DNA from: Nitrosopumilus sp.
Lineage (GTDB): Archaea; Thermoproteota; Nitrososphaeria; Nitrososphaerales; Nitrosopumilaceae
Direction of reading: 5' to 3'
DNA: 64,000 nucleotides
NCBI GenBank assembly: GCA_965249555.1
Contig: OZ252243.1
Span: 1,792,001 to 1,856,000 of the forward strand
Within the stretch, counting starts at the first letter, position 1. Each line of letters starts with the position of its first letter. The position numbers were made by a program, and so were the translations under genes. The notes under the pieces are model-generated. The model searched no databases and was not told where the DNA came from. It worked only from the letters and a program-made list of their open reading frames with translations. Positions 4,280-46,763 of this stretch are shown here, in pieces.

Positions 4280-4522
4280 TCATAGTTTCCTTAATAATGT
4301 GGATCTGGGTTTGTCCGGCTCTATGTCTTCATGCATGTCCACGTTGCTGACAACCCTTGCCTTGTAGCTTAGCCATCTGTTTTGCATGTTGCGAAACTTA
4401 TGATTCCCATCAATTGGTTTTTCTGTCTCTTCAAATTTCTCACAATTCATAATGTATTTTCCAGAAACCCTAAACATCTCTGCAACACCTTTTCCTAGTG
4501 TCTCATCATCCAAATAATTCAT
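4280..4522 (-). pseudogene. C-terminal fragment of a class I SAM methyltransferase
   Basis: EMFRVSGKYIMNCE motif; the SAM-binding N-terminus is replaced by ilvE sequence. Confidence 0.55.
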
Positions 4523-5053
4523 CAGCCCACCCTTCCATTTCCAATCTTTACCTTGTCTATCTGAGTCACTGATTTTACCTCTGCAGCTGTTCCTGTCATG
4601 AATATATCATCTGCATTGTAAAGATCATCTCGTTCCAGACTGCTCTCAACAACAAAACCGCCGTTCTTCTCAATAATTTGAATAATACTGTCCTTGGTAA
4701 TTCCTGCCAATCCTCCTGCTGAAAGTGGAGGGGTTTGAATAATGTCATCTTTGACAATGAAAATATTCTCTGCACTGCCTTCTGCAACTTTGCCGTGATA
4801 ATTTAACATGATAGCCTCGTCGTATCCATTTTCTAGCGCTTCCATTCTTGCAAGAGCCGCATTTGCATAGTTTGATGCTGCTTGCACTGTTTTTATAATT
4901 GCATCAGTAATTGTTTCCTTTGAGAATTGCATCTTCATTGAGTATAATTTTGCAGATTTAAAAAATCTGTCAACATGTTCTGGCAGTCTAAAAATCGCCT
5001 ATCCCTTCAAAGTATTATAGCATCTGATCCCTTCAAAAACTGATGTCGAATAG
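4522..5053 (-). pseudogene. ilvE: Branched-chain amino acid aminotransferase pseudogene
   Basis: YSTSVFEGIR, FRLPEHVDR, AEGSAENIF, LAGIT, TGTAAEV motifs; internal stop, internal deletion (IIKTV|QAASNY), both ends truncated. Confidence 0.85.
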
Positions 5054-5161
5054 GGCTCTGGTCAGTTCTGGTGATCTAGCATAGATAGTGGTCAGAAGTG
5101 ACAAATATGGATCTTCTCAAGATTGCCCGACCCCCTTGAAAAAACCCCTGGTCAGAAGTGA
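5054..5161. mobile_element. Transposon end with subterminal TGGTCAG repeats
   Basis: 83 bp (5054-5136) identical to 41712-41794; begins with the MITE inverted repeat; truncates ilvE. Confidence 0.7.
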
Positions 5162-5180
5162 TATAAAAAATTCTTGAATA

Positions 5181-6472
5181 CTCCCATACGAAATCGTCTC
5201 CAACCCTACTGAGGACACTTACTAGCGTGCTTTGCTGAATCAGGACATCTCAGATATGCCTTGCATCTTATACTTTTGCTGTGTCAGTTCATGATTTTGT
5301 GTACGATACACTTTCAGAATTTGTTAGCATGTACCCGGATTATTGCAAGCATCCGGTCTTGCAGCTGCCACCTTTGTTTTCTTCTCTTTGCAATTCTGAA
5401 ATAGAATGATTCCATTCTTTCATCAAATCGTACTGTAGTATTTGCAGCCTCTACCATTGCGTTACGTAACCATGCAGAACCCCTCTTTGTTATTCCGCCT
5501 CCTCGGTGCACATCTGCATTCCTGTGCGATGGCGCAAGTCCTGCATATGAGACTAGTTTTTCTGCTGATGCAAATCTGCTGATGTCAACTATCTCTGAAA
5601 TTATTGTCAATGCCGTGACATAGTTTATTCCAGGAATGGTCATTAGTAGTCTTGTTTTCTCATCCTCATTACTGCAATCTTTATCTCAATTGTGTTGATC
5701 TGTTTTTGCGTCATATCTATGGTATCAAGATATGCATCCATTGCCATTCTATCAGATTAATTTCATGCAACCATCGTACTCCTTTCTGCGAGAATGTCTT
5801 TGTTGTAGGCTGGGTGTAATCATATTTTGCAAGTATTGCATAAATCATGTTTTTGTGTCTTGAGACACTTCGCACGCGATTCAGTCTGGTTCTTACCAGA
5901 CTGTATAGTCTCTATAGTATTTTTCTGGTACGAATGAGCTGTACACCATGTCTGCTCTTAGCAAGTCTGCCAATACGTCTGAATCAAGTTTGTCGTTTTT
6001 GAGCTTTGCCTGTACAATTATCTTGGTCTTTGCAGGATGTGCAAGAATTGTATCAATTCCATGGTCCTCTAGTGTGTCATGTAGTCTGATCCAATAGTTT
6101 GCAGTTGATTCGCACACTGCCTGTATGTCATTGCCATATGTCTTTTTGACGTGTTTGATAAAACCCATTATTCCATTTGTGGTATTATCAAAGCTTGTCT
6201 GCTCTAGCTTCTCTCTGGATTCCCGTTTTATTGTTGCAACACATTTCTTCTTGTGAATATTAATTCCTATGCTGATCATACCATCACCTCCTTTTTGATC
6301 AAATTGCCTGATCTAGCGGAATACTCCCATTCACCATCTATGTGGTATTTTGTTTTCCGCTCACTTTGAGTTAGTCTGTCAAACGCCCTTGTACATGGCA
6401 ATATTCATTCAACTCTCAGGCCCAACAGTAGGTATACATCACAAGATATGAAAAAGATTTCGTATAACGTCT
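5181..6472 (-). mobile_element. IS110-family element, copy 1, frameshifted transposase
   Basis: ORFs 5893-6279 (RuvC-like, ESTA, KNDKLDS) and 5314-5643 (TIPGI, SYAGLAP); subterminal IR ATACGAAATC/GATTTCGTAT; CT at both ends; near-identical to 20956-22250. Confidence 0.92.
6310..6420 (-). ncRNA. Putative IS110 bridge RNA, copy 1
   Basis: Two stem/internal-loop/hairpin modules (GAGTT..AACTC and AGCGGAA..TTCCGCT); loops contain TTGACAG and TGAAT (match insertion flanks) and ATGGGAG (matches element end). Confidence 0.7.
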
Positions 6473-6763: not shown

Positions 6764-6951
6764 ATTTTTAGGCATTGGCATTCCACTGTGAAAAATACGA
6801 TCAAAATTATGAGATCCCTTGAATCTCATTTTACAAAACTTTACACATATGCATATCTGAGCTATGCCCAAATTACTCACGATTGCCAAATTACAAGCTT
6901 AAAAAATCAACCTTTAAACCTTTTATAACTACAAATTATTTTTGATACAAT

Positions 6952-9900
6952 GTGAATAAAATGTTATTTAATGCGTTAGTGGGGGGGGGGGTTGTCCTGT
7001 TTGCCATATCACTTCTTGCAAGTGCTGAGGCTCAAGCCCCAATTGCACCTGTCCCTCCTGTAATTGAAGAAGGAGAAATCTTTTCGACAAACATTGAGAT
7101 TACATGGGGTGTGGTGGATGGTGCCACATCATACACAGTGTACAGAAACGGCGCTAACCGAGGAACTACTACTGATACATCATTCATTGATTATGGTTTA
7201 ACTCCTAATACAGAGTACACTTTTCGTGTCGTAGCACACAATAGTGCAGGCCAGACAGCAAACTCTGCTTTTTTTAAAGTATCTACCACATCTGCACCGA
7301 CCTCTTTTAGTGCCCCAGCACCAACTTATGCAGATACTCAGACGGCAATCGAGGACGGCACTATTAGTATTGAAAAGAATAATTCCAGAGACGATCAAAT
7401 AGATATATCTTTTGTACCGAAACAAGTCGGTGTATATTCTATTGAATATGGTGCTTTCAATACTGAAACTGTTAGTGTTAGTAGTGGTCAGACAGATATA
7501 CGTAAAGTTGTACCCCCAATAACGATAGGTTATGGTTTTGATCAAGATATCATCATTTCCTTTAGAGAAGGAACATCTGATCTAGTTGAAGTTGCAAGGG
7601 CACATGTAACGACTGTACCTACACCAACTCCTACACCTAGAGTAACAGATGTCACTTCGACAAGTATAACGATTGAATGGGATGCAGTGGCTGGTGCCGG
7701 ATACGATATCTTTAGAAATGGCGTGGAACAAATAACTATCACTGGTTCATCATACCATGATGATGAATTAGATCCCGAAACAACTTACACTTATACTATC
7801 AGACCAAATTACATAAACAATACTGTTGGGCCCACTTCTGCTCCATTGGTTGTAACCACCTTGGAATTACCACCTGCTACTCCAGCACTTGTACTGGGAG
7901 AAGTCACTGACACAAGTATAGCACTTTCATGGGGTGCAGTGGATAATGCCGACAGTTACACTTTGACCAGAATTGTTGCAGGCGGTAATATAGTAGTGGT
8001 ATCCAGCAATGTATTGACTGCCATTGATACTGGCCTGGCTCCTGCAACTGATTACAAGTATGTCATTGTGGCAACAAATACTGCCGGGACAAGTACTCCT
8101 TCTGCAGAGTTTGCAGCATCTACAACTGCAGCACCAATTGATACTACACCACCAGTAATCACAGTAACTCCAGAAGAAATCACTCTTGAACTAAACTCAC
8201 CTGCACCAACACTTCTTACTGGAGTCGAAACTGATGATGGCTCTGCAATTACTATATCCGGAACTGTTGATGTTACCACAGTAAACGATTACACTATCAC
8301 TTATTCCTCAACTGATGGTACAAACCCAGCTGTTGATAAAACCAGAATATACAAAGTAACTGATACCATACCACCAGTAATCACAGTAACTCCAGAAGAA
8401 ATAACTCTTGAACTAAACTCACCTGCACCAACACTTCTTACTGGAGTCGAAACTGATGATGGCTCTGCAATTACTATATCCGGAACTGTTGATGTTACCA
8501 CAGTAAACGATTACACTATCACTTATTCCTCAACTGATGGTACAAACCCAGCTGTTGATAAAACCAGAATATACAAAGTAACTGATACCATACCACCAGT
8601 AATCACAGTAACTCCAGAAGAAATAACTCTTGAACTAAACTCACCTGCACCAACACTTCTTACTGGAGTCGAAACTGATGATGGCTCTGCAATTACTATA
8701 TCCGGAACTGTTGATGTTACCACAGTAAACGATTACACTATCACTTATTCCTCAACTGATGGTACAAACCCAGCTGTTGATAAAACCAGAATATACAAAG
8801 TAACTGCAGCACCTGTCCCAATCCAGTTAAATACCATACAAATTAATCAGAATGCTAACGTTATAGATATATCATTTGTACCGCTTCTTGCCGGTACATT
8901 TGATATTTCATATGCTGGTTCAACCCCACAACCACAAACTATCGATTCGGCCCAAACAGGTACCGCTTTAGAGTTTTCGGTAACCCTCGATTCTGGTTTT
9001 GCCGGCAATGTCTGCATTGAATTTGATGGTGATGAGATTTCTTGCAGTACAATTCGGATTGAACCTGACGAACCCACACTTGTTCTCGGAGACGTTACTC
9101 ATGATACCATAGGGTTCACATGGAACTCTGTAAATAATGGCCACAATTATATTCTGACCAGAGTTATTGAGGGTACTGATAAAATAGTGGTAGAAGGCAT
9201 CAATGTACTTGCTGGCACTGATGATAACTTGGAACCTGAAACCGAGTACACATATGTAATTTCAGTGAGCACACCTGATGGTGACTTCAATGATGAATAT
9301 AGTCCGTTTTCTGTAACTACACTTGCAGCACCTGCTACTGAAACGCCGGCAATAGAGGCAAACTCTTTTGAGGTTACCAATCCGATAGATACAAACGCAT
9401 TACTTGTAGAGTTTGTAGCCTTAAAGGCAGGCACATTTACGATTACGGCAGGTGCGTTGACTGACACTGTTGATGTAACAGATACAGATGTAACAGATGC
9501 AGCAGTGAAAAGTAAACAGATAACAGTCAACCCTGAATTTGATGGCGATGTAATCCTCTCATTTGACGATGCGACAGTTGCAAGCACACCTGCATCTCTA
9601 CTTGCAATCAGGGCAGGCTCTTTTAGTTATACTGGAGATGCTGCTGGAGATGTAACTGTATCCTTTGTTCCGTTAAGGGCAGGCACATTTACAGTTGAGG
9701 CAGGTGATGCCAGCGATGACATAGTTGTTGGTACTGGCGATATAGGTAACACTGTATCATCCGATCCGCTATCCCTTGGCAATGGTTTTGATAGTACTAT
9801 TCTCATTTTATTGAATAATCATGTATATCTAAGGCCATCAGTATTGACTCTACCTGGCATCCCGACACTTGAGGTAGAAACCCCTACTCATAACAGTGTA

Positions 9901-11685
9901 ACGCTCTCATGGAATAGAATTGCCAGTGCAACAGGTTACGTACTGAGCAGAACTAGTGGCGGAGCAACAACTGAGATATCAGTCACTGGGATCTCATATG
10001 CTGATACCTTGGAACCTGAAACAACTTACATCTATTCCATAAGGACAGTGGCAGCAGCTGGAGACAGTGCCGCCTCTAATGTCGTGTCTGTAACTACACT
10101 TGCAGCACCAACTGATACAACTCCACCTGCCGCACCCGTACTTTCTGCAGGAACAACTACTGATACAACTATATCACTTTCATGGACTGCAGTGGATAAT
10201 GCCGACAGTTACACTCTGACCAGAATTGTTGATGGCATTAATGATGTTGAAGTGGCAACAGGCGATATATTGACTGCCACTGATACTGGCCTGTCTGCTG
10301 ATACAGATTACAAGTATACCATTACGGCAACAAATACTGCCGGGACAAGTGATCCTTCTGCCGAGTTTGATGCAAGGACTGATGCAGCCAATACAAACCC
10401 ATCACCTGCCGTGTACACTCTCAACGATACACCTCATGCTACTGACGGAGATAAAGTAGTTATAACCTTCACATCGTCACACACCGGTGATTTTACAATT
10501 GAATTTGATGGTGGTCGTACCATTGACTTTACAATTGATGATGCAGCCGTCCCATATATTCACACAGAAACAGTTGGGTATGATTATAATGGCAATATTA
10601 TCATTTCAATTGCCGGCGGTGCCGAGGTTGCAAGGGAATCTGTAACGACTGAACCTGAAAACCCAAAGAAAAAAGGTGGAGATTCTAATGAATGGAAAAC
10701 AAAGCCAACCTTTGGCAAACATTGGAATAATCAAGCAGTACAGCTAGTTGATGACGGCTTTGTCTTTAATGGCATGCCATTAACCATTACAAACAACTGG
10801 CACACTGACTTTAATATGACTAGCAGCATTATTGGTGATAACAATACAGTCCACATCAAAGGCTATGCAACAAATGGCCTAAAGTCCGTATCTCTATCCC
10901 TTGGAGTTCCAGAAGTTGGCCTGAAGACTAATGCAGAGTCCCACATTATAGTGAATGTAAATAGCAACTATACTAGTCCTGCAGGTTATGACATTGCAGA
11001 TATAGTCCATGAGCAAAAAGAGGGACTAGTAAATGAGGACATGACTAGCGCATCCATTGACAAAGTCAAATGTACATCATCAGATACTGCAGAGAGGTGC
11101 TTTGATGTTACCATATCATTTGTAATAATGGCACCATTATCCCATGAAGTATTGGCAATTAATGCAGTTGACAAACAACGTTACTCTACTACCACATATA
11201 TCAACGAAGGTGTAGAGTTTGTGGGAGAAGCATTACTTGCAGCAGCAACTCATGAGTTAAAACAAAAGCATGGCAACCAGAATCCGTTTGAGACCATATC
11301 ACTAACCCAGCAGGACAGACGTTACCAGGTCTGGGAGGACCAATATGGATACATATGGTCACAAAATGACTATGGCACCTGGTTGCAGATTACAAGACCT
11401 GATATGCAACAAAGAGATGATCTGCCAACAAGCGTAATGACTAGAATTCATTCAAACTTTGCAAATCTGGTAATTGATGAGCAGGATAGGGCAACCCTGA
11501 TCTTTGATAGTAAGGCAATTCAGGGAACCTTGGATGAATCATTCTCATATGATATGCCATTAAGACTGGACAGAGTATCAGATCCCGCATTGCTGGAATC
11601 ACTATCCATACAAGAGATGCTGGCCCAGGAGATGCTGTGTGACTGTATGATATATGATGACTCTGATCTTAGCTGGAATGACTAG
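6952..11685 (+). CDS. Giant secreted FN3/Ig-like (DUF5011-type) repeat surface protein, paralogue A
   Basis: 1577 aa; signal peptide; FN3 motifs (W..V.GA..Y..YRNG, L.P.T.Y.Y); DTTPPVIT modules; C-terminal ~340 aa shared with 41898-46763. Confidence 0.9.
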   Translation: MNKMLFNALVGGGVVLFAISLLASAEAQAPIAPVPPVIEEGEIFSTNIEITWGVVDGATSYTVYRNGANRGTTTDTSFIDYGLTPNTEYTFRVVAHNSAGQTANSAFFKVSTTSAPTSFSAPAPTYADTQTAIEDGTISIEKNNSRDDQIDISFVPKQVGVYSIEYGAFNTETVSVSSGQTDIRKVVPPITIGYGFDQDIIISFREGTSDLVEVARAHVTTVPTPTPTPRVTDVTSTSITIEWDAVAGAGYDIFRNGVEQITITGSSYHDDELDPETTYTYTIRPNYINNTVGPTSAPLVVTTLELPPATPALVLGEVTDTSIALSWGAVDNADSYTLTRIVAGGNIVVVSSNVLTAIDTGLAPATDYKYVIVATNTAGTSTPSAEFAASTTAAPIDTTPPVITVTPEEITLELNSPAPTLLTGVETDDGSAITISGTVDVTTVNDYTITYSSTDGTNPAVDKTRIYKVTDTIPPVITVTPEEITLELNSPAPTLLTGVETDDGSAITISGTVDVTTVNDYTITYSSTDGTNPAVDKTRIYKVTDTIPPVITVTPEEITLELNSPAPTLLTGVETDDGSAITISGTVDVTTVNDYTITYSSTDGTNPAVDKTRIYKVTAAPVPIQLNTIQINQNANVIDISFVPLLAGTFDISYAGSTPQPQTIDSAQTGTALEFSVTLDSGFAGNVCIEFDGDEISCSTIRIEPDEPTLVLGDVTHDTIGFTWNSVNNGHNYILTRVIEGTDKIVVEGINVLAGTDDNLEPETEYTYVISVSTPDGDFNDEYSPFSVTTLAAPATETPAIEANSFEVTNPIDTNALLVEFVALKAGTFTITAGALTDTVDVTDTDVTDAAVKSKQITVNPEFDGDVILSFDDATVASTPASLLAIRAGSFSYTGDAAGDVTVSFVPLRAGTFTVEAGDASDDIVVGTGDIGNTVSSDPLSLGNGFDSTILILLNNHVYLRPSVLTLPGIPTLEVETPTHNSVTLSWNRIASATGYVLSRTSGGATTEISVTGISYADTLEPETTYIYSIRTVAAAGDSAASNVVSVTTLAAPTDTTPPAAPVLSAGTTTDTTISLSWTAVDNADSYTLTRIVDGINDVEVATGDILTATDTGLSADTDYKYTITATNTAGTSDPSAEFDARTDAANTNPSPAVYTLNDTPHATDGDKVVITFTSSHTGDFTIEFDGGRTIDFTIDDAAVPYIHTETVGYDYNGNIIISIAGGAEVARESVTTEPENPKKKGGDSNEWKTKPTFGKHWNNQAVQLVDDGFVFNGMPLTITNNWHTDFNMTSSIIGDNNTVHIKGYATNGLKSVSLSLGVPEVGLKTNAESHIIVNVNSNYTSPAGYDIADIVHEQKEGLVNEDMTSASIDKVKCTSSDTAERCFDVTISFVIMAPLSHEVLAINAVDKQRYSTTTYINEGVEFVGEALLAAATHELKQKHGNQNPFETISLTQQDRRYQVWEDQYGYIWSQNDYGTWLQITRPDMQQRDDLPTSVMTRIHSNFANLVIDEQDRATLIFDSKAIQGTLDESFSYDMPLRLDRVSDPALLESLSIQEMLAQEMLCDCMIYDDSDLSWND
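6981..6991 (+). repeat. G11 homopolymer in signal-peptide codons
   Basis: GT-G11-TTG; identical tract at 41927-41937. Confidence 0.9.
8149..8806 (+). repeat. Three near-perfect 222-bp tandem repeats (74-aa Ig-like module)
   Basis: Units start at 8149, 8371 and 8593. Confidence 0.95.
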
Positions 11686-11721: not shown

Positions 11722-11998
11722 GGTGATTGGGTATCTACTACCCCTAAGATTATTATGGAATATTTCACAAAAACAATGGATGGATTTTGTATCATTTGCA
11801 AAAACAATCCCTGATGAATTATTAATACAATTCCTGGAATCAAAATATGACAAGAATCCTTCCCGTACTTTTTGCAAAAATAAAACTCTCTGTACCAAAG
11901 ACAGAGACAAAATGAGATGGCATATCTGAGATGTCCTGATTCAGCAAAGCACGCTAGGAGGTGTCCTCAGTAGGGTTGGAGACGATTTCGTATGGGAG
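11722..11998 (+). mobile_element. Chimeric IS1595 left end fused to an IS110 terminal segment
   Basis: TIR GGTGATTGGGTA.CTAC.CCCCTA then transposase start; 11919-11998 is the reverse complement of IS110 end 5181-5260; repeated at 46798-47074. Confidence 0.85.
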
Positions 11999-12151
11999 AA
12001 CCTTACAATATAACCAGTTTTAATATCATATAGGATAACAAAATGTATGGAAAAATCCAAATTGAAACCTGATGAACCATGGGGAAAAAGAGATGATGAA
12101 GTATTTGAGAGATATGAAAAAAGTCTGAAAAAGAAATCAAAAAAGTAATAC

Positions 12152-13097: not shown

Positions 13098-13500
13098 TCA
13101 ATTGAATATCTCTCCAAGTGTAAATCCAATGTTTGTAGCAGTTTTTTCAATTTCTCCAAGTATATCTTGTGAAATCGTCCTAGTAACATTCATCTCTGTC
13201 CATTCACTGTCATGTATTTTTTCCAACTCTTGATATAATTCTTTTTCTGGCTGTATCACATAACTATACACTTTTTCCCCAATAATGTGTTCTGTAACTT
13301 TCATACCACATTTTTCAAATATTTTGATCTCAGTTTTACAATTAATTTCTGATTGTTCTTCATTTTCATCATGATCTACAATTATACGAATTCCTTTTCT
13401 TCCATCTAGAATCATTACTGAATGACCCTCTTGCATGTATTTTGTTTTCAGTCTTTCTTTTATAATTGCAAAATCAATTTTAGATGAATCTTCTTTAATA
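13098..13500 (-). CDS. Hypothetical protein; true start probably downstream of the ORF-track start
   Basis: ORF 13098-13616 overlaps the upstream gene. Confidence 0.55.
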
Positions 13501-13524
13501 TCTTTTAGGAAATCATACGATATT

Positions 13525-13875
13525 TTATCCAGATGGGTTTGCATTTCCAACTTCACTTGATTCATCATTCTTTTTGAATACTCTGTATTCTCCAATAATT
13601 GAACTACATTTTTCACAAGTGTATTGTCCTCTTTCTACTAGTATCAAATTGTCTGCTACTTCCTCATTGGTACTTTCTTCTAATTTTACCTTTGGTGGAT
13701 TATCAAATTCTGTTTCACAATTTTTACAATAATGTTTGAACATTTTTTCAGTTTCAAGTTTTCCAATTGGTGCCAAAAATAATTTTCCTACTCCTAAATC
13801 TGCCTTTTTTGCCTGCTCTTCAGTTAGTTCTGCTATGATATATCCACCAGAACCTTCAACTTTGAATTCTGCCAA
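13525..13875 (-). CDS. Conserved thaumarchaeal zinc-ribbon protein
   Basis: CKNC...CEKC pairs. Confidence 0.75.
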   Translation of the reverse strand: MAEFKVEGSGGYIIAELTEEQAKKADLGVGKLFLAPIGKLETEKMFKHYCKNCETEFDNPPKVKLEESTNEEVADNLILVERGQYTCEKCSSIIGEYRVFKKNDESSEVGNANPSG

Positions 13876-13898
13876 TTTACATTGATGTGATATATGCG

Positions 13899-14550
13899 TC
13901 AGATAAGCTTTATGGTCTCAGATAATGATTGCACAGTTTTTTCAATAAGATCCATCCTTTTAGAATGATAAATTTCTAAATGCATTTTTTTAACAAAATT
14001 TTCTACACTTTTCTTTGGAAAACTATCTAATTTGTTAAATGGTATAATCATTAGATGTAATTTTTCAGCAATGTTTCCAGATTGAGGTGGGATATAATAT
14101 TCAACATTTTCAAAAGTTTTTGCACCAAATTTTTTATAAAAACGAATTCTATCTTTTCTTATCTCTCTCATCAGAATCATTTACATCTTCTAGCTGAATT
14201 TCTAACAACAGACCAAGAAAGTTCTTTGATTTCATAACTTTTATACAATATTGAAGTAATTTTGAACCTATTCCTTTTCTCTGGAAGGAATCATTAATTA
14301 CCATATAATCAAGCAGTGAAACTTTCTCATCGGGAAGTTCACATACTAAAGCAAATCCTATTGTTAAATTATTTTCTTTGACTAGATATAGATGATATTT
14401 TTCGTCATTTCTTACCATCGCATTTAATTTCTCGATTGGTCTTCTCTCAACAGCTGGAAAAGAATTCATGTATAGTTCTTTAAGATTAGAATCTACAATT
14501 TCATCTTCTTCAACAATTCCAATTGCCATACAAGCTGGATTTTCTGGCAA
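13899..14550 (-). pseudogene. GNAT acetyltransferase split by a frameshift
   Basis: 5' ORF has FQRKGIGSKLL; 3' ORF has RIRFYKKFG; they overlap at 14149-14180. Confidence 0.8.
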
Positions 14551-14664: not shown

Positions 14665-15519
14665 ATGGATAAAATAAAGCAAAATTCTCCAGTATTATTC
14701 TATTTTAATCATTCAAAAAAATGGCTGATGAAAATTTCAAAAAAAGAATCTCTTCATACACATATTGGGGTAATCAAACATTCTGATGCAATTGGAAAAG
14801 AATATGGTTCCAGAGTAATGACTAACAAGGACAAGTATGTCTATGTTCTAAAACCAACAATGTATGATTATGTAATGAAAATCCAACACGGTACACAAAT
14901 TGTTTATCCAAAAGATCTTGGATATATTGTTGCAAGAGCTGGAATTGGAAGTGGCCAAAAGATTTTAGAAATTGGAACTGGTAGTGGTTCATTAACCTCT
15001 TTTGTAGCTAGTATTGTAAAACCTCGTGGTCATGTATACACTTTTGATGTTAATGAAAATTTTATGAAGATAGCTGAAAAAAATATCAAAAAAGCAGGGG
15101 TTTCAAAATATGTCACACAACATAATTTGGATCTAAAAACTGCAAAAAAGATGCCATTAGAAGATATGGATGTGGCGTTAATTGATTTGGGTGATCCTTG
15201 GGTAGTAATTCCCCAAGTGCGCAAGATGCTAAAAAGCAGCGGTTCAATTTTTGCCATTTGTCCTACAATGAATCAATTAGAAAAATTAACTATGGCTCTA
15301 GTTGAAAATGAATTTACTGATATAGAATCAACTGAACATATTTTGCGTACAATAGAAGCTAGAGAAGGAAAAACCAGACACTCTTTTCAAGGAATTGGCC
15401 ATACTACCTATCTCTGTTATGCTAGAAAGGCATTTTTTGGCAGAGCCACAAAAAATACTAAATCAAAAACCGGCAAAAAAACCACGAAAAAAGCTACTAA
15501 AAAAACTAGTAAAAAATAG
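14665..15519 (+). CDS. trmI: tRNA (adenine-N1)-methyltransferase
   Basis: TQIVYPKD, LEIGTGSGSLT, DLGDPW, GHTTYL. Confidence 0.93.
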   Translation: MDKIKQNSPVLFYFNHSKKWLMKISKKESLHTHIGVIKHSDAIGKEYGSRVMTNKDKYVYVLKPTMYDYVMKIQHGTQIVYPKDLGYIVARAGIGSGQKILEIGTGSGSLTSFVASIVKPRGHVYTFDVNENFMKIAEKNIKKAGVSKYVTQHNLDLKTAKKMPLEDMDVALIDLGDPWVVIPQVRKMLKSSGSIFAICPTMNQLEKLTMALVENEFTDIESTEHILRTIEAREGKTRHSFQGIGHTTYLCYARKAFFGRATKNTKSKTGKKTTKKATKKTSKK

Positions 15520-15582: not shown

Positions 15583-16446
15583 ATGGTAAGAAGGAATCTT
15601 TCAGCATCTATTGTTAAGAAATTCATTCCTGCACGAAAATCAAAGTCTAGAAAAGGTGATAATGGAATTGTATTGGTAGTTGGTGGAAGCTATATCTATC
15701 ATGGCGCTCCGATTTTATCCTCAATTGCTGCATTTCGATGTGGAACTGATTTAGTTTATACTTCTGTTCCGAAAATTAACGTAGCACCAACACGTGCAAT
15801 TTCCCCAAATCTTATTGTCATTCCTTTAGTTGATCAAAAATTAACTCGTGGTGCTGTAAACAAACTTGTAGGTGCATTACCCAGACATCTAGATTCTGCA
15901 ACCATTGGCATGGGTCTTGCAATACAAGACAAAAATGCATTATTACTTTTAGTTAAATCACTTTTAGATAGAGATGTTAGATTATCATTAGATGCAAGTG
16001 CATTAATTCCTGAAGTTGTCCCTCATTTAGCAAACAAAAATGTTGTAGTGACTCCACATGCTGGAGAATTTAAGCGGTTATTTGGGGAATCACCTTCTAA
16101 CTCAAAAAATGAGCGAATAAAGTTGGTAGAAAAAAATGCAAAGAAACATGGAATTACCGTTTTACTAAAAGGTGCAGTAGATGTTATTTCAAATGGTACG
16201 ACTACATATCTTTATGAGAAAAAAATTCCTGCAATGACTGTTGGTGGTACAGGAGATGTTCTTTCAGGGTTGGTTGCAGGAATGCTATCCAAAAATCGTA
16301 ATGCTTTAGAATCTGCTGCAGCAGCTACCTTCATCAATGGATTGGCAGGAAAAGCAGTTCAAAAAAAATTAGGACTACATATGACATCAATGGATCTTTT
16401 AGATGAGATTCCATCTGTGATGAAACCATTTGATAAGATTGCGTGA
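15583..16446 (+). CDS. nnrD: ADP/ATP-dependent NAD(P)H-hydrate dehydratase
   Basis: KGDNGIVLVVGGS, TPHAGEF, GGTGDVLSG. Confidence 0.93.
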   Translation: MVRRNLSASIVKKFIPARKSKSRKGDNGIVLVVGGSYIYHGAPILSSIAAFRCGTDLVYTSVPKINVAPTRAISPNLIVIPLVDQKLTRGAVNKLVGALPRHLDSATIGMGLAIQDKNALLLLVKSLLDRDVRLSLDASALIPEVVPHLANKNVVVTPHAGEFKRLFGESPSNSKNERIKLVEKNAKKHGITVLLKGAVDVISNGTTTYLYEKKIPAMTVGGTGDVLSGLVAGMLSKNRNALESAAAATFINGLAGKAVQKKLGLHMTSMDLLDEIPSVMKPFDKIA

Positions 16447-20516: not shown

Positions 20517-20900
20517 CTAGTTATTTCTGTGATTTTGGAAACATTCTCTACAATATACTGGTCTGTCGTCTTTTGGCTTGAATGGTATCTGACAATCATT
20601 TCCACAATCGCCACATTTTGCGTCAAACATTTCTCGTGGTCTGTCATCTCGTCTGCCATAGCTGCCACCACCAGATCTTCCACCATAGCTGCCACCACCA
20701 GATCTTCCACCATAGCTGCCACCACCAGATCTTCCACCATAGCTGCCACCACCAGATCTTCTTGGTGCTGGTTTATGATTTTGGAAACATTCTCTACAAT
20801 ATACTGGTCTGTCGTCTTTTGGCTTGAATGGTATCTGACAATCATTTCCACAATCGCCACATTTTGCGTCAAACATTTCTCTATCTCTATCAAATGGCAT
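20517..20900 (-). CDS. CxxC-x17-CxxC domain protein with two identical domains and a Gly/Arg-rich linker
   Basis: CGDC...CREC twice; about four 27-bp repeats encoding RSGGGSYGG at 20657-20761. Confidence 0.9.
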   Translation of the reverse strand: MPFDRDREMFDAKCGDCGNDCQIPFKPKDDRPVYCRECFQNHKPAPRRSGGGSYGGRSGGGSYGGRSGGGSYGGRSGGGSYGRRDDRPREMFDAKCGDCGNDCQIPFKPKDDRPVYCRECFQNHRNN

Positions 20901-20955
20901 GTCTTTCTAAAAAGTGGTAAAATCGGGTTGTACTTAAACTATTGTAAAATTGATT

Positions 20956-22250
20956 CTCCCATACGAAATCATCTCCAACCCTACTGAGGACACCTCCTAG
21001 CGTGCTTTGCTGAATCAGGACATCTCAGATATGCCTTGCATCTTATACTTTCGTTGTGTCATTTCATGATTTTGTGTACGATACACTTTCAGAATTTGTT
21101 AGCATGTACCCGGATTATTACAAGCATCCGGTCTTGCAGCTGCCACCTTTGTTTTCTTCTCTTTGCAATTCTGAAATAGAATGATTCCATTCTTTCATCA
21201 AATCGTACTGTAGTATTTGCAGCCTCTACCATTGCGTTACGTAACCATGCAGAACCCCTCTTTGTTATTCCGCCTCCCCTGTGCACATCTGCACTATCCC
21301 TGTGCGATGGTGCAAGTCCTGCATATGAGACTAGTTTTTCTGCTGTTGCAAATCTGCTGATGTCAACTATCTCTGAAATTATTGTCAATGCCGTGACATA
21401 GTTTATTCCAGGAATGGTCATTAGTAGTCTTGTTTTCTCATCCTCATTACTGCAATCTTTATCTCAATTGTGTTGATCTGTTTTTGCGTCATATCTATGG
21501 TATCAAGATATGCATCCATTGCCATTCTATCAGATTAATTTCATGCAACCATCGTACTCCTTTCTGCGAGAATGTCTTTGTTGTAGGCTGGGTGTAATCA
21601 TATTTTGCAAGTATTGCATAAATCATGTTTTTGTGTCTTGAGACACTTCGCACGCGATTCAGTCTGGTTCTTACCAGACTGTATAGTCTCTATAGTATTT
21701 TTCTGGTACGAATGAGCTGTACACCATGTCTGCTCTTAGCAAGTCTGCCAATACGTCTGAATCAAGTTTGTCGTTTTTTAGCTTTGCCTGTGCAATTATC
21801 TTGGTCTTTGCAGGATGTGCAAGAATTGTATCAATTCCATGGTCCTCTAGTGTGTCATGTAGTCTGATCCAATAGTTTGCAGTTGACTCGCATACTGCCT
21901 GTATGTCATTGCCATATGTCTTTTTGACGTGTTTGATAAAACCCATTATTCCATTTGTGGTATTATCAAAGCTTGTCTGCTCTAGCTTCTCTCTGGATTC
22001 CCGTTTTATTGTTGCAACACATTTCTTCTTGTGAACATCAATTCCTATGCTGATCATATTATCACCTCCTTTTTGATCAAATTGCCTGATCTAGCGGAAT
22101 GCTCCCATTCACCATCTATGTGGTATTTTGTTTTCCGCTCACTTTGAGTTAGTCTGTTGGACGCCCTTATACATGGCAGTAACCATTCAACTCTCAGGCC
22201 CAACAGTAGGTATACATCACAAGATATGAAAAAGATTTCGTATAACGTCT
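20956..22250 (-). mobile_element. IS110-family element, copy 2, frameshifted transposase
   Basis: GIDVHK; same breaks and ends as copy 1. Confidence 0.92.
22088..22198 (-). ncRNA. Putative IS110 bridge RNA, copy 2
   Basis: Same stems as copy 1; target-loop sequences differ. Confidence 0.65.
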
Positions 22251-31265: not shown

Positions 31266-31269
31266 AGGA

Positions 31270-32148
31270 TTACTCTAGTAGATTTTCATGTAACCACCAA
31301 AGAAACTCCGTGTATGCCTGATGGCTGTATGATAATGGCTTTGCAACTTTTGGTGCTTTTGTAGAATCGATTTCATTCTCTCTGTTTCTTTGTACATCAA
31401 CATGAACCATAAAATATTCTCTTTCTCCAACATGAATATCTTCAAGAGTGTTATGGAATCTTCTCATCCATTTTTTAACTAATTCTTTAGCAGGCACGTT
31501 TCTATCTTCTAAACTGTCTGCTTTTGTAAGCACTATTGCTATTGGCGTATCAATTCTTCCATTTTTTGAAGTATTTGTTGATTTTTTAAATTCTTGTATG
31601 GTCGTTAATGTTTGGCTATATTGAGTTTGAACATTTTCCCAATCTGTTTTCATTTTTGAGCAATCAAGTAAAATTACATACATTTTTGCATATACTGCAT
31701 ATATCATTTCACTATAGGACTCACCTTTGACTTTTCCCATCTCACAAACTTTTACAACTCGTTCATCCCCTCTTATTTCTTCACCTAAACACATGTTTTT
31801 GTAATCCTCGCCAGAAATGTCTGGAAGTTTAAACTCTATACTGCTTGCAGTAGCTCCTGTTCCACGCATCTCAAAGATGATTTTGTCTCTTGATAGTTGT
31901 GGTGTTCTTTCTGGAAATTCTCCTCCTCTCATACTATTCTCACATAGTTCAAGAAATGGTCTTCCCTTTTTTGGGTGTGCTCGTAATTCTGGATGTTCAT
32001 CTAGAAAATGATTGTCTATTGCATGACTTAGTAAAGTGATAAACACTGTTTTTCCAGTTCTACTTGGGCCTAAAACCGCTACGTTATTTTCATTTAGAAT
32101 AGTTTTAGATGCCTTTAATATTGGAGCCATCTTGTCTTCTATGCCCAT
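31270..32148 (-). CDS. TRAFAC-class (double-GTPase-like) GTPase
   Basis: G1 GPSRTGKT, G2 FPERT, G3 DISGE, G4 TKAD. Confidence 0.8.
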   Translation of the reverse strand: MGIEDKMAPILKASKTILNENNVAVLGPSRTGKTVFITLLSHAIDNHFLDEHPELRAHPKKGRPFLELCENSMRGGEFPERTPQLSRDKIIFEMRGTGATASSIEFKLPDISGEDYKNMCLGEEIRGDERVVKVCEMGKVKGESYSEMIYAVYAKMYVILLDCSKMKTDWENVQTQYSQTLTTIQEFKKSTNTSKNGRIDTPIAIVLTKADSLEDRNVPAKELVKKWMRRFHNTLEDIHVGEREYFMVHVDVQRNRENEIDSTKAPKVAKPLSYSHQAYTEFLWWLHENLLE

Positions 32149-41794: not shown

Positions 41795-41897
41795 CCACCA
41801 TATCTGAGATATCCCAAATTGCTCACGATTGTCAAATTACAAGCTTAAAAAATCAACCTGTAAACCTTTTATAACCACAAATTATTTCTGATACAAT

Positions 41898-44800
41898 ATG
41901 AATAAAATGTTATTTAATGCGTTAGTGGGGGGGGGGGTTGTCCTGTTTGCAATATCACTTCTTGCAAGTGCAGATGCTCAAATTTACGCACCTGGCCAGA
42001 CGGCAATCGATGGAGACTCTTTTGAGACTAGATCACTTCCAACCCAAACAGTGGTAAACTTTGACCCCCTCAAGGAAGGCGTATACACTGCTACGGCGGG
42101 CGGACAGACCAAAACTAGAACTGTTGTATCAGATGACCTTAATGACGAAGTAACTATTTCCTTTAATATTGCGAGTTCTTCTGTTAATACTGTCATCTTG
42201 TCATATGGCGGTGAGGAAGTTGCAAGGCAGACTGTAACGCGTAATCCAACTACAATTAGTGTGGGAGACGTCACTAGTACAAGCATTGAGATTTTATGGA
42301 AGACGCGAGATAATGCCTTTGACTATCATGTGTATAGAGATGGTAAACTACAAGGAAATCTCAACTTCCTCTACAGCGACCCCCGCACCGGCGGCGTTAA
42401 TACTGGTCTGACTCCTGGAACGACCTACGAATATTATGTCGGAGTATCTTACTTTGATCCTCCCTTGACTGTTAACTCTAATACTTTGACTGTAACTACA
42501 ACTGTACCTGATACAGAAAAACCAGTAATCACAGTTAATGAAGAATCATTCTCCATCGAGCTTGGAGAAACATACACGCCATTCACCTATTCTGCAACTG
42601 ATGATACTGATGGAGATATCGCAGGTGGTGTAATTGTTGACGGAGATACAGTTGATATCGATGTAGCTAATACTTACACTGTTACCTTTGATGTAGCTGA
42701 TGCGGCTGGAAACCTTGCAGAAACAGTAACTAGAACAGTTACAGTTACAGATACTACACCGCCAGAAACTCCCGTACTTGGACTGAGAGCAGTCACTGAC
42801 ACACATATAACGCTTTTCTGGGGTGCAGTGGGTAATGCCGACAGTTACACTTTGACCAGAATTGTTGGCGCAGAGACATCAGAGATACCGGACATTACTG
42901 GTACATCATACAATGATGATTCCTTGGAACCTGAAACAAATTACAAGTATACCATTACGGCAACAAATACTTTTGAGACAAGTGATAGTTCTAACGAGGT
43001 CACTATAACTACTCTTGCTACCACAACAATAACTTACACAGCTGACCAGACGGCAATAGAGGCAGACTCTTTTGATGTTTACGTAGTTCTTTCTCTTGAT
43101 GAGGTATTTGTAGAATTTGACCCCCGCCATCTAGGCGTATACAGTGTTACGTTGGACGGAGTGACCAAAACTATAGCTGTTACACGAGATAACTTGGATG
43201 ACACAATAGTCATCACATTTGATTATGTGAATTCCTATGTCGGCAATGCCGTCCTGTCATTTGACGATAAAGTGGTTGTAAGGCAGACTGTAACGAACGA
43301 GTCAGCACCAACAGTAGATGCTGTAAGAAATGCTGATAATTCCATTACACTATCCTGGAGTAATATAGTTGCCAACGATTTTATTATTTTTGTAGTTAAA
43401 GACGGTATTTCTGATGAATTGGCTAGGTTTGCTGATAGTCCACAGACTATTACGGATCGTGACTTGCTTGACAAAATAAATGATAGTGATGCAATTGGTG
43501 TAGCAGGTCTTGGTGAGGATACGGGGGTTGCTCAGGATGTTATAGATGCTATAACTGCTGCTATAACTGATGGTCAATTAGATGACACCATTCCTGCTCA
43601 AAACCCTGAGGCACCTGATACTACAGCACCACCAGTTCCTGCAATTACCACGCCATCTGCAACTGTTGGCGCATCACCAATCACAATTAATGGCGGTTCA
43701 ACTGAAGCCGGGGCAACTATAGAACTATTCCGTGGAGGAACATCAGTTGATACGACAACTGCCGATGGAACAGGTGCTTTCTCATTTACAGGAGTTGCAC
43801 TAGATGAAGGTCCCAACTCTTTTACTGCAAGAGCATCTGATGGAGTCAACATATCTGGTCCATCACCAGCTATAGTCATTACGCTTGATAGTATAGCACC
43901 AGTAATCACAGTAAATCCTCTTACCGTTACACTACCAGCTGGCTCAGCACAACCTGACTTGCTTGAAGGAGTCATAACTGATGATGGCTCTCCAGTTACT
44001 CCATCTGGAACTGTCAATATAGACACGCCAGACGATTACACTATCACTTATGATTCCACTGATGGTACAAATACAGCTGTCTCTGCAACTAGAACATACA
44101 CAGTAACTGTAGCAACTCCACCTGCTACTGAAACGCCGGCAATAAAGACAGGCTCTTTTGAGGTTACTAATCCGATAGATACAAACGATTTACTTGTAGA
44201 GTTTGTAGCCTTAAAGGCAGGCACATTTACGATTACGGCAGGTACGTCTACTGACACTGTTGATGTAACAGATACGGATGTAACAGATGAAATAGTGAAA
44301 AGTAAACAGATACCAGTCAACCATGAATTTGCTGGCGATGTAATCCTCTCATTTGACGATAAGACAGTTGCAAGCACAACTGCATCTCTACTTGCAATCA
44401 GGGCAGGCTCTTTTGATTATACTGGAGATGCTGCTGGAGATGTAACTGTATCCTTTGTCCCGTTAAGGGCAGGCACATTTCTAGTTGAGGCAGGTGATGC
44501 CAGCGATGACATAGTTGTTGCTACTGGCGATATAGGTAACACTGTATCATCTGATCCACTATCCCTTGGCAATGGTTTTAGTAGTGATATTCTCATTTTA
44601 TTGAATGGCGATGTATATCTAAGGCCACCAGTAGTGACTCTACCTGGCATCCCGACACTTGAGGCAGAAACCCCTACTCATAACAGTGTAACGCTCTCAT
44701 GGGATAAAATTGCCAGTGTAACAGGTTACATACTGAGCAGAACTAGTGGTGGAGCAACAACTGAGATACCAGTCACTGAGACCTCATATGATGATACCTT

Positions 44801-46763
44801 GGAACCTGAAACAACCTACACCTATTCCATAAGGGCAGTGTCTATAGCTGGAGACAGTGCCGCCTCTGATGTCGTGTCTGTAACTACACTTGCAGCACCA
44901 CCTGATACAACTCCATCACCAACTCCACCTGATACAGAAAAACCAGTAATCGCACCAGCAGGATCTGATACAACAATTGAGTTAACTCAAACCAACACTT
45001 ACAATGAACAAGGCGCTGCTGTAACTGATAATGACCCAGCCTACTCTGGAACAGTAGCAGCAGTCTCTGGTGATACACCTGACACCAGTGGTATAGGGGT
45101 ATACACCGTAACATATACTGCACCAGCTGATGCGGCAGGTAACACACCAGACCAACAATCAATTGTAATTACTGTAGTTGATACCACACCACCAACCTTT
45201 GATGTTGATGGTAACACAGCTGACTATGCAACTACAGTACCATTTGGCGGAGCATACACCCCAGGTGTAATTAACAATGCATCTGATATCTCAGGAATTG
45301 CATCCAGTACAGTTGGCGGTGAAACAGTCAATGTCGACACTTCTGGAGAGTATGTTGTAACTTATACTGTAACTGACAACAATGGATTACCTGCTACCAT
45401 CACTGAAACTGTAACAGTATCTGCAGCACCAGCAGTAGATGCTGTAAGAAATCCTGATAATTCCGTTACAGTATCCTGGAGTAATATAGAAACTAATCTC
45501 CCCAATGAATATGTTCTTACTATTGGTGACGGTAGTAATGATTTTGATACTTTCACTCCAACTGTAGAATCAAATCAATATACTATCACTACTACTATAA
45601 CTCGTATCATCGATCTAAACGATGCTAATCAAGTTTGTATAAAGGGTGTTGGTGTAGATAATAAAATATGTGAACCTGTACCTGAAGCATTTGATATAAC
45701 TAGTGGAGATGGTAGCACCACTAGTATACCTTCTGACACACCAAAGAAAAAAGGTGGAGATTCTAATGAATGGAAAACAAAGCCAACCTTTGGCAAACAT
45801 TGGAATAATCAAGCAGTACAGCTAGTTGATGACGGCTTTGTCTTTAATGGCATGCCATTAACCATTACAAACAACTGGCACACTGACTTTGATCTGACTA
45901 GCAGCATTATTGGTGATAACAATACAGTCCACATCAAAGGATATGCAACAAATGGCCTAAAGTCGGTATCTCTATCCCTTGGAGTTCCAGAAATTGGCCT
46001 GAAAACTAATGCAGAGTCCCACATTATAGTGAATGTAAATAGCAACTATACCAGTCCTGCAGGCTATGACATTGCAGATATCGTCCATGAGCAAAAAGAG
46101 GGACTGGTAAATGAGGAGATGACTAGCGCATCCATTGACAAAGTCAAATGCATATCATCAGATACTGCAGAGAGGTGCTTTGATGTTACCATATCATTTG
46201 TAATAATGGCACCATTATCCCATGAAGTATTGGCAATTAATGCAGTTGACAAACAACGTTATTCTACTACCACATATATCAACGAAGGTGTAGAGTTTAC
46301 AGGAGAAGCATTACTTGCAGCAGCAACTCATGAACTAAAACAAAAGCATGGCAACCAGAATCCGTTTGAGACCATATCACTAACCCAGCAGGACAGACGT
46401 TACCAGGTCTGGGAGGACCAATATGGATACATATGGTCACAAAATGACTATGGCACCTGGTTGCAGATTACAAGACCAGATATACAACAAAGAGATGATC
46501 TGCCAACAAGCGTAATGACTAGAATTCATTCAAACTTTGCAAATCTGGTAATTGATGAGCAGGATAGGGCAACCCTAATCTTTGATAGTAAGGCAATTCA
46601 GGGAACCTTGGATGAATCATTCTCATATGACATGCCATTAAGGCTGGACAGAGTATCAGATCCCGCATTGCTGGAATCACTATCCATACAAGAGATGCTA
46701 GCCCAGGAGATGCTGTGTGACTGTATGATATATGAGGACTCTGATCTTAGCTGGAACGACTAG
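41898..46763 (+). CDS. Giant secreted FN3/Ig-like repeat surface protein, paralogue B
   Basis: 1621 aa; shares signal peptide, a central block (about 44120-44910 vs 9330-10120) and the C-terminus with paralogue A; other modules differ. Confidence 0.9.
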   Translation: MNKMLFNALVGGGVVLFAISLLASADAQIYAPGQTAIDGDSFETRSLPTQTVVNFDPLKEGVYTATAGGQTKTRTVVSDDLNDEVTISFNIASSSVNTVILSYGGEEVARQTVTRNPTTISVGDVTSTSIEILWKTRDNAFDYHVYRDGKLQGNLNFLYSDPRTGGVNTGLTPGTTYEYYVGVSYFDPPLTVNSNTLTVTTTVPDTEKPVITVNEESFSIELGETYTPFTYSATDDTDGDIAGGVIVDGDTVDIDVANTYTVTFDVADAAGNLAETVTRTVTVTDTTPPETPVLGLRAVTDTHITLFWGAVGNADSYTLTRIVGAETSEIPDITGTSYNDDSLEPETNYKYTITATNTFETSDSSNEVTITTLATTTITYTADQTAIEADSFDVYVVLSLDEVFVEFDPRHLGVYSVTLDGVTKTIAVTRDNLDDTIVITFDYVNSYVGNAVLSFDDKVVVRQTVTNESAPTVDAVRNADNSITLSWSNIVANDFIIFVVKDGISDELARFADSPQTITDRDLLDKINDSDAIGVAGLGEDTGVAQDVIDAITAAITDGQLDDTIPAQNPEAPDTTAPPVPAITTPSATVGASPITINGGSTEAGATIELFRGGTSVDTTTADGTGAFSFTGVALDEGPNSFTARASDGVNISGPSPAIVITLDSIAPVITVNPLTVTLPAGSAQPDLLEGVITDDGSPVTPSGTVNIDTPDDYTITYDSTDGTNTAVSATRTYTVTVATPPATETPAIKTGSFEVTNPIDTNDLLVEFVALKAGTFTITAGTSTDTVDVTDTDVTDEIVKSKQIPVNHEFAGDVILSFDDKTVASTTASLLAIRAGSFDYTGDAAGDVTVSFVPLRAGTFLVEAGDASDDIVVATGDIGNTVSSDPLSLGNGFSSDILILLNGDVYLRPPVVTLPGIPTLEAETPTHNSVTLSWDKIASVTGYILSRTSGGATTEIPVTETSYDDTLEPETTYTYSIRAVSIAGDSAASDVVSVTTLAAPPDTTPSPTPPDTEKPVIAPAGSDTTIELTQTNTYNEQGAAVTDNDPAYSGTVAAVSGDTPDTSGIGVYTVTYTAPADAAGNTPDQQSIVITVVDTTPPTFDVDGNTADYATTVPFGGAYTPGVINNASDISGIASSTVGGETVNVDTSGEYVVTYTVTDNNGLPATITETVTVSAAPAVDAVRNPDNSVTVSWSNIETNLPNEYVLTIGDGSNDFDTFTPTVESNQYTITTTITRIIDLNDANQVCIKGVGVDNKICEPVPEAFDITSGDGSTTSIPSDTPKKKGGDSNEWKTKPTFGKHWNNQAVQLVDDGFVFNGMPLTITNNWHTDFDLTSSIIGDNNTVHIKGYATNGLKSVSLSLGVPEIGLKTNAESHIIVNVNSNYTSPAGYDIADIVHEQKEGLVNEEMTSASIDKVKCISSDTAERCFDVTISFVIMAPLSHEVLAINAVDKQRYSTTTYINEGVEFTGEALLAAATHELKQKHGNQNPFETISLTQQDRRYQVWEDQYGYIWSQNDYGTWLQITRPDIQQRDDLPTSVMTRIHSNFANLVIDEQDRATLIFDSKAIQGTLDESFSYDMPLRLDRVSDPALLESLSIQEMLAQEMLCDCMIYEDSDLSWND
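41927..41937 (+). repeat. G11 homopolymer in signal-peptide codons
   Basis: Same tract as 6981-6991. Confidence 0.9.

Follow-up and report, generated by a model that had tools for sequence, protein, structure and literature searches.

Poly-G tracts in the signal peptides of two giant surface proteins of Nitrosopumilus: candidate phase variation in an archaeon

A stretch of 64,000 nucleotides (nt) from a Nitrosopumilus sp. chromosome (hereafter the window; positions are numbered as in its initial annotation) encodes two giant predicted surface proteins, and the genes for both (here called gene A and gene B) carry an uninterrupted run of eleven G (G11) within the codons of the signal peptide. 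We consider it probable that these runs are contingency (phase-variation) tracts that would switch the surface-protein genes ON and OFF through changes in their length. This reading is partly supported by the sequences compared here: the comparative support comes from several lineages and is credible, and the mechanism would be an ordinary one for bacteria. Repeat-mediated phase variation is regarded as a hallmark of host-adapted bacteria, and Nitrosopumilus-type archaea, which oxidise ammonia, rank with the most abundant nitrifiers of the sea and of sponges. If true, a heritable stochastic switch acting on the largest surface proteins, together with a methyltransferase, would bear on the evasion of viruses or hosts, and on the meaning and the annotation of "frameshifted" Nitrosopumilus genes.

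Tract length, rarity, and codon usage

The initial annotation, made from the sequence alone, had reported exactly 11 G at 6981-6991 (gene A) and 41927-41937 (gene B), and a direct count on the forward strand gave the same result. Both tracts read GTG GGG GGG GGG GTT (V-G-G-G-V), and the translations bear out their placement, in frame, in codons 10-14 when counted from GTG 6952 in gene A or from ATG 41898 in gene B; in gene A the run extends from the last base of codon 10 to the first base of codon 14. Counted from ATG 6961 or ATG 41907, the start chosen in the database entry P0003, they occupy codons 7-11.

The description of the DNA as strongly AT-rich agrees with a G+C content of 34.5% for the window, and a census of homopolymers in it upheld the statement that no comparable run of G or C occurs elsewhere. 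Runs of G were found at length 5 (n = 8) and at length 11 (n = 2), with none of lengths 6-10, and runs of C at length 5 (n = 11) and length 6 (n = 1, the maximum), which leaves the two G11 tracts as the only G/C runs longer than 6; the longest runs of A and T had 8 and 9 nt, respectively. The pattern G8, searched on both strands, gave 8 overlapping matches, every one of them within the two tracts, compared with an expectation of 0.23 (standard deviation 0.53), and none of 100 dinucleotide-preserving shuffles reached 8 matches. The codon GGG accounts for 52 of the 568 Gly codons (9.2%) in the 33 other open reading frames (ORFs) of the window and, in the two large ORFs without their tracts, for 9 of 211, and the other Gly-Gly pairs in genes A and B are encoded by non-GGG codons in 15 cases out of 15.

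Homopolymer runs ≥ 5 nt are few downstream of the tract, with 4 in 4694 nt of gene A and 9 in 4.8 kb of gene B, as compared with 341 in 30.6 kb of the remaining ORFs of the window. As the large ORFs are poor in homopolymers, the 5′ tract is the sole long run in each gene. An Rfam scan of the window detected only two tRNAs and no known RNA element at the tracts. A G-quadruplex at the tract was also considered and set aside, since a single G11 cannot supply four runs of G.

Consequences of a change in tract length

In both genes the tract encodes part of the signal peptide's hydrophobic core, at a place where a frameshift would be most disabling. When its length was set in silico to G9, G10, G12, or G13, the frame closed after 24-37 codons in gene A and after 41-53 codons in gene B. 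No in-frame ATG, GTG, or TTG is present between 41938 and 42050 of gene B, the next possible start being a GTG at codon 52 (Table 1).

Four of the features by which contingency loci are commonly recognized can be described for both genes: a long repeat (G/C, roughly ≥ 8 nt) in the 5′ part of the coding sequence, a tract whose length or frequency exceeds what composition and codon usage predict, a frameshift that results from altering the number of units and, in silico, abolishes the product, and a product that is surface-exposed (or a modification enzyme), in this case by prediction from a signal peptide identified by eye and from Pfam domains. In the mechanism that we propose, slipped-strand mispairing at replication would add or remove one G in G11. 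With a tract of off length, translation from the sole start region would end after 24-53 codons, yielding neither signal peptide nor protein (OFF), and a second slip would restore G11 or produce G14 (ON). The paralogues would switch independently of one another, and the cells of a clonal population would differ in which family members they display. Such length changes would be expected to occur at a high rate and reversibly in vivo, the products may be adhesins or other interaction proteins, and the switching could be adaptive, e.g., against viruses, hosts, or grazers.

Architecture of the two genes

The term "giant surface proteins" used in the initial annotation fits the predictions, with lengths of 1577 and 1621 amino acids (aa), a signal peptide, and fn3 as well as immunoglobulin (Ig)-like domains in both (Table 1). 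Pfam matches were obtained for fn3 (4.9e-27 in gene A, 1.9e-12 in gene B) and for Bact_surface_Ig-like (6.3e-11 and 9.5e-23, respectively). The two proteins begin with a common signal-peptide-like sequence, MNKMLFNALVGGGVVLFAISLLASA(E/D)AQ, and end on an acidic ...CDCMIY(D/E)DSDLSWND which, judged by eye, is not followed by a hydrophobic tail. A C-terminal sorting signal of the archaeosortase type (PEFG- or PGF-CTERM), which consists of a short motif, a hydrophobic helix, and a basic tail, was likewise not found in either protein on inspection by eye. A possible adhesin function is suggested by the fn3/Ig-like domains and the signal peptide.

The similarity between the 5′ ends of the two genes extends from approximately 85 nt upstream of the start codon to a few codons past the signal peptide, forming a direct repeat (D9) of 169 nt (6867-7035 and 41813-41981) with 95% identity; upstream of about 6850 it ceases abruptly. 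This module contains the sequence TTTTATAA, located about 24-31 nt ahead of GTG 6952, which by eye, in comparison with the archaeal consensus, looks like a TATA box, at a spacing that would suit a leaderless or short-leader mRNA. Because the tracts reside in a shared, 95% identical module of 169 nt, they represent one evolutionary event and are not independent of each other. As read from the sequence, genes A and B are members of a cassette-like family, composed of a putative promoter/signal-peptide cassette, a variable array of fn3/Ig-like domains, a C-terminal domain of ~350 aa, and a common 3′ flank. The tandem 222-nt repeats found in gene A (Table 1) are a recent expansion and a possible second source of size variation.

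Table 1 Positions and properties of the features of genes A and B and of the adjacent insertion sequence (IS) element in the window
Feature	Position	Strand	Description
Gene A	6952..11685	+	Predicted secreted multi-domain surface protein of 1577 aa (ORF, translation, Pfam)
Gene B	41898..46763	+	Paralogue of 1621 aa with the same signal peptide and a different central domain array
Signal-peptide coding region, gene A	6952..7032	+	VNKMLFNALVGGGVVLFAISLLASAEA then QA; n/h/c layout read by eye
G11 tract, gene A	6981..6991	+	In frame
G11 tract, gene B	41927..41937	+	In frame
5′ module, upstream half, gene A	6867..6951	+	TATA-like TTTTATAA at 6921-6928
5′ module, upstream half, gene B	41813..41897	+	TTTTATAA at 41867-41874
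First in-frame start after the tract, gene B	42051..42053	+	GTG; corresponds to residue 1 of P0005
Three tandem 222-nt repeats, gene A	8136..8806	+	Family D1, 98-100% identical, one Ig-like unit each
C-terminal domain, gene A	10624..11682	+	About 350 aa; AlphaFold model with two beta-sandwiches and two helices
C-terminal domain, gene B	45702..46760	+	95-97% identical to that of gene A
Common 3′ flank	11722..11999 and 46798-47075	+	Repeat D7, 278 nt, 98% identical
IS110-family element	5053..6279	-	Split transposase ~0.6 kb upstream of gene A; DEDD_Tnp_IS110 5.8e-15, Transposase_20 1.5e-22

The C-terminal domain family and the comparison loci

The C-terminal domain matched no Pfam family. Searches with it retrieved 46 homologous proteins at E ≤ 1e-3 from a collection clustered at 90%, and, with the same cutoff, 680 cluster representatives from a library clustered at 50%, of which 195 had E ≤ 1e-30; among the matches listed, the domain forms the C-terminus or lies close to it, and the proteins reach lengths of 7532 aa. 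Its AlphaFold model had a predicted local distance difference test (pLDDT) value of 81, comparison of this model with structures in the PDB returned only generic Ig-like matches with a template modeling (TM) score of about 0.2, and an Atlas search with the domain gave no usable match.

Thirty genomic loci with the domain (designated L001 etc.) were recovered from 9 assemblies, the window's own chromosome not being among them. All of them belong to Nitrosopumilus chromosomes obtained as metagenome-assembled genomes (MAGs) or to a Nitrosopumilaceae assembly, which, together with CdvA encoded in the window, corroborates the earlier attribution of this system to an archaeon. A proteasome subunit, an XPG/FEN-1-type nuclease, and ThyX are encoded in the window as well.

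Alleles of different tract length in paralogues

The 30 loci were scanned for G/C runs ≥ 8 nt, and 10 such runs were found. Two of them belong to paralogues (L013 and L014) of one other Nitrosopumilus assembly that share a conserved 5′ cassette. L013 carries G11(TGG)6 in frame with a signal-peptide-like start (466-494), and L014 carries G12(TGG)5 (2176-2202), where the signal-peptide frame runs into a stop and an ORF of 2926 aa continues in another frame, remaining open for 2926 codons (8.8 kb) after the tract. The alignment of the two cassettes begins ~115 nt before the tract and reaches into the sequence encoding the mature protein, and in roughly 270 aligned nt their sole difference in length is inside the repeat. 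The initial annotation had suggested that other paralogues be checked for frameshifted alleles with G10 or G12, and the out-of-frame G12 of L014 is such an allele, found in a different genome from that of the window. The (TGG)n repeat that follows the G tract varies too (6 units in L013 and 5 in L014); this variation is frame-neutral and alters the length of the Gly run in the signal peptide.

Two compositional properties of the giant genes were also observed. The giant ORFs (6992-11685 and 41938-46763 in the window, 2207-10987 in L014) are depleted in homopolymers, with ~1-2 runs ≥ 5 nt per kb vs. ~11 per kb in other ORFs of the window, and the giant genes have 40-43% G+C vs. 30-35% in their surroundings.

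N-termini in alternative frames

At the protein level, two further lineages of homologues were found in which some members have a residue run in or after a normal signal peptide and others have N-termini that could be encoded in a different frame of the same DNA. In one of them, P0033, P0037, P0038, and P0040 have ...FLA(A)GGGG(I/V)SLIQEADA in a normal signal peptide, and P0031 starts with MHDKVLPVGCYSSHLLSRGGGG, a sequence that dynamic programming identified as a possible other frame of the P0033 signal peptide in 18 of 18 overlapping codons, up to GGGG. In the other, the signal peptide of P0009 and P0049 leads into PPP(P)LEPS. P0015, taken at +1, corresponds to 28 of 29 residues of the P0009 signal peptide up to PPP (shuffled controls reached at most 15), P0008 at +1 corresponds to 23 of 29, and P0007, P0010, and P0013 begin a few codons before the P run and have no signal peptide. 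In total, 2 of the 7 PPP(P)LEPS proteins (P0009 and P0049) are in frame with the signal peptide and 5 are not. P0007 and P0013 were also tried as the +2 frame of the P0009 signal peptide, which gave 9 and 6 matches, respectively, out of 9; with shuffled controls getting to 9 too, these short peptides are consistent with the frame idea and not significant alone.

The window's own chromosome provides a related case. Except for the initial residue (M vs. V), residues 1-92 of P0005 are identical to residues 52-143 of P0002 (gene B), and P0005 starts exactly at the first in-frame start codon past the tract position, which is where a frameshift in the tract would move its start. P0004, from the same chromosome, has no signal peptide either. 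The N-terminal 150 aa of gene B, used as query, matched only P0002, P0005, and P0003, all from this chromosome. A search for an annotated short ORF identical to what gene B would yield with G10 (P0182) found no candidate, which is a weak negative, as such ORFs often go unannotated.

Long G/C runs at other loci

In the low-GC Nitrosopumilus loci, the lengths of G/C runs are bimodal, with runs of 5-7 nt and then of 9-13 nt and none of 8. One of the long runs, G9 at 14058-14066 of L011, is found right after the start codons of an N6/N4 DNA methyltransferase gene (PF01555, 2.8e-56; 13227-14105, reverse strand), whose ATG is one base out of frame with an intact body of 280 codons. The gene next to it encodes a BglII-like restriction endonuclease (PF09195, 3.1e-22). 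In our analysis this layout resembles that of a phase-variable (phasevarion-like) methyltransferase, here in an archaeon.

Other long runs occupy different contexts. Large surface-protein genes of L018 and L024 have in-frame C runs in mid-gene (C11 at 16145-16155 and C13 at 9898-9910, respectively), which encode PPPP. The C13 run of L024 lies just before the conserved C-terminal domain, and slippage at the C runs of L018 and L024 would yield truncated secreted proteins without this domain. In L012, the same position of two IS transposase copies is occupied by A8G9 and A6G10 (21-29 and 14969-14978); the run length differs between the copies, and the transposase frames around this composite homopolymer are fragmented. 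L001 has one intergenic G10, and the runs of L023 and L026 are from a genome with 65% G+C, where they are uninformative.

The four signal peptides that bear a tract are unrelated in sequence, and their tracts differ in position, being in the h-region, ahead of the cleavage site, or immediately past it. Given the lack of relatedness and the differing tract positions, we argue for independent origins. It is conceivable, at somewhat less than even confidence on our part, that some lineages of Nitrosopumilus possess a contingency system made up of repeats at multiple loci (a "phasome"), with G/C tracts of 9-13 nt that arose independently in at least four unrelated signal peptides of one family of giant surface proteins and at the 5′ end of the methyltransferase gene of a restriction-modification system. 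If true, their populations would stochastically vary the surface coat and the methylome in the manner of host-adapted bacterial pathogens, which would make this the first repertoire of the kind to be described in Archaea.

The proposed switch and its alternatives

The initial annotation had proposed slipped-strand ON/OFF switching in an archaeon, and this proposal stands in part. The in-frame and out-of-frame alleles in relatives and the three consecutive rare GGG codons speak for it, and the window itself offers no length variation, both tracts being G11 and of shared ancestry. Several other observations also weigh against the switch. Only L013 and L014, among the 30 loci, have a G/C run ≥ 8 nt at the 5′ end of the family gene (in 6 of the 30 the open frame ran to the locus edge, with the 5′ end outside view), and L024 has such a run internally in the family gene instead. 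The 5′ position of the tract is not universal, given that the C11 of L018 and the C13 of L024 are in mid-gene and in frame. No G/C run longer than 6 was found in the 9 loci (181 kb) of one assembly and none longer than 7 in the 6 loci (126 kb) of another; tract use is lineage-specific, and most homologues in other Nitrosopumilus genomes are tract-free. P0004, P0005, P0006, and P0044 lack a signal peptide in their protein sequences, for which tract length is one possible reason.

Furthermore, homologues encode Gly triplets with mixed codons (e.g., GGG GGA GGG, GGG GGT GGA, and GGT GGC GGA). These triplets are in the signal peptides of L017, L027, and L028, from the assembly without runs longer than 6, and a few residues after the signal peptide in L007, from the assembly without runs longer than 7. 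They can be read in two ways, as they also concern the view that the tract is a static feature, in which Gly3 is simply part of the signal peptide (e.g., as a flexible break in the h-region), was copied by one recent duplication or gene conversion, and changes at no relevant rate. The 95% identical cassette with G11 in both genes agrees with this view, and so do the Gly-rich signal peptides without homopolymer of the homologues L016, L017, L027, and L028. We nevertheless judge it unlikely, as the peptide does not need three consecutive rare GGG codons flanked by G, the homologues with Gly triplets do use mixed codons, and G11/G12 alleles as well as alternative-frame N-termini exist in related genes.

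A different concern is that the tracts are real and their out-of-frame versions (L014, L011, P0031, P0015, and others) are homopolymer miscalls of long-read assemblies, with falsely annotated N-termini as a consequence. Every OFF allele comes from the single consensus of a MAG or chromosome assembly, which counts against the switch, runs of 9-13 G or C are harder to call than any others, frame breaks abound in L013, which comes from the assembly that also contains L014, and the ratio of 5 out of 7 out-of-frame proteins in the poly-P lineage could also be produced by systematic under-calling. Against this, 33 other ORFs of the window remain open through 51 runs of 7-8 nt, which indicates that the window assembly is not generally error-prone at homopolymers, and out-of-frame cases were found in at least four assemblies and at both G and C tracts. 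The ORF of L014 also stays open for 8.8 kb, though it has no run longer than 5 in which the assembly could be tested, and a mixed-length population of reads would itself yield a consensus miscall at such a tract. On balance, we find an assembly artefact rather unlikely.

One-way decay, with the tracts as mutational hot spots and the out-of-frame copies as pseudogenes in IS-rich and possibly host-restricted genomes, is made plausible by the abundance of broken IS elements and gene fragments, a further point against switching. The window contains IS110 copies with a split transposase, fragments of IS1595, and a class IV aminotransferase gene that is cut short, which suggest ongoing gene decay in its genome; several close relatives lack their N-termini, and the gene of L013 is split downstream into at least 7 ORFs, either as a decaying pseudogene or through poor assembly. 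Old pseudogenes are, on the other hand, at odds with the intact 2926 codons past the tract in L014 and the intact 280 codons of the L011 methyltransferase, the tracts seemingly arose independently in four unrelated signal peptides, and the bimodal run lengths suggest that long tracts are maintained and not eroded, all of which renders decay quite improbable as an explanation. Finally, G11 could act at the RNA level, causing transcriptional slippage or ribosomal frameshifting that tunes the yield of full-length protein or rescues out-of-frame alleles. The tract is close to the 5′ end of the mRNA and long homopolymers are known to cause slippage of RNA polymerase in bacteria, but differing lengths were seen directly in DNA and slippage is best known for A/T runs; we attach very little probability to this option.

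Comparison with known systems

In Neisseria opa and in Helicobacter pylori oipA, sabA, and hopZ, repeats are located in the signal-peptide codons of multigene surface families, as CTCTT pentamers or CT dinucleotides. The arrangement of genes A and B is similar to that of opa and the H. pylori outer membrane protein (OMP) genes in that the repeat is in the signal peptide, a change in unit number shifts the frame and aborts translation (in silico for genes A and B), and paralogues each have a tract behind a conserved 5′ region. It differs by the mononucleotide G11, by its occurrence in an archaeon, and by the product, as the bacterial proteins are beta-barrel OMPs and those described here are arrays of fn3/Ig-like domains of about 1600 aa; in addition, switching has been measured in opa and H. 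pylori, whereas here we infer it. The Vlp and Vsa systems of Mycoplasma also have a multigene family with a conserved promoter/signal-peptide cassette, a repetitive body that varies, and ON/OFF control by a homopolymer, but their tract, a poly-A, is located in the promoter spacer and affects transcription, whereas the tracts considered here are in coding sequence and would act on translation.

With the poly-G genes of Campylobacter jejuni, the present loci have in common an AT-rich genome, G/C runs ≥ 8 nt beyond what composition predicts, an association with surface or modification genes, and bimodal run lengths. C. jejuni is, in contrast, a pathogen in which mostly glycosylation, capsule, and flagellar genes are concerned and rates were measured, while the system proposed here would operate in a chemolithoautotrophic archaeon, on giant secreted proteins, with switching as a prediction. 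Poly-G tracts of C. jejuni have been reported (PMC539331).

A survey by Orsi and colleagues, which included 18 archaeal genomes, proposed 5′ homopolymeric tracts as a general switch for gene inactivation (PMC2831843). The 5′ bias reported there was confined to poly(A) and poly(T) tracts of up to 8 nt and did not extend to longer tracts or to poly(G)/poly(C), and no archaeal surface-protein case is described in the available passages of that survey (PMC2831843). According to the accessible part of a 2025 review, the distribution of phase-variable loci over archaeal phylogenies is a subject for future work that could inform evolutionary explanations (PMC11868660), and a 2025 preprint notes that contingency loci "have been described in archaea", with no details in the portion available (10.1101/2025.10.21.683753). 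The archaeal polymerases PolB and PolD were found to slip in vitro, as stated in the available text of the respective study (PMC4134008). In the accessible sections of two surveys of archaeal restriction-modification, phase-variable systems come up solely in connection with bacteria or among the references (PMC10609329, PMC11033074). Within the literature searched, no paper connected phase variation, slipped-strand mispairing, or switching by homopolymers with Nitrosopumilus or Thaumarchaeota, and the only paper that named both Nitrosopumilus and phase variation was, judging by its accessible part, an unrelated study of the haloarchaeal lipobox. Contingency loci are familiar in bacteria and hardly documented in archaea, and the new element here, which we consider credible, is their proposed presence in an archaeal group for which the literature searched holds no description of them.

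Mobile elements and other features of the window

Fragments of the IS110 and IS1595 families flank both giant genes. An 84-nt piece of the IS110-family element upstream of gene A (5053-5136) recurs with 100% identity at 41711-41794, directly upstream of the 5′ module of gene B (repeats D3, D4, and D12). A second, near-identical IS110 copy, with its transposase split in the same way, is located at 20953-22057 on the reverse strand, and solo fragments are present by both giant genes (including one at 47037-47374). By eye, ORF fragments in the common 3′ flank look similar to the initial part of the IS1595-like fragments (50290-50812). The class IV aminotransferase ORF (4522-4938, reverse strand) covers only positions 118-223 of the 223 positions of the profile and adjoins the IS110 copy.

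Two other loci on the reverse strand were noted. A small protein encoded at 20517-20900 has two treble-clef zinc-finger domains (PF23477, 2.7e-37) with four GGSYGGRSG repeats between them, and its gene contains an internal duplication of 117 nt with 96% identity. A three-gene cluster at 30078-34295 encodes GAP1-N2 and double-GTPase (DO-GTPase1/2) domains and a 715-aa protein without a Pfam match; GAP1-N2/DO-GTPase domain sets are associated with conflict or defence systems.

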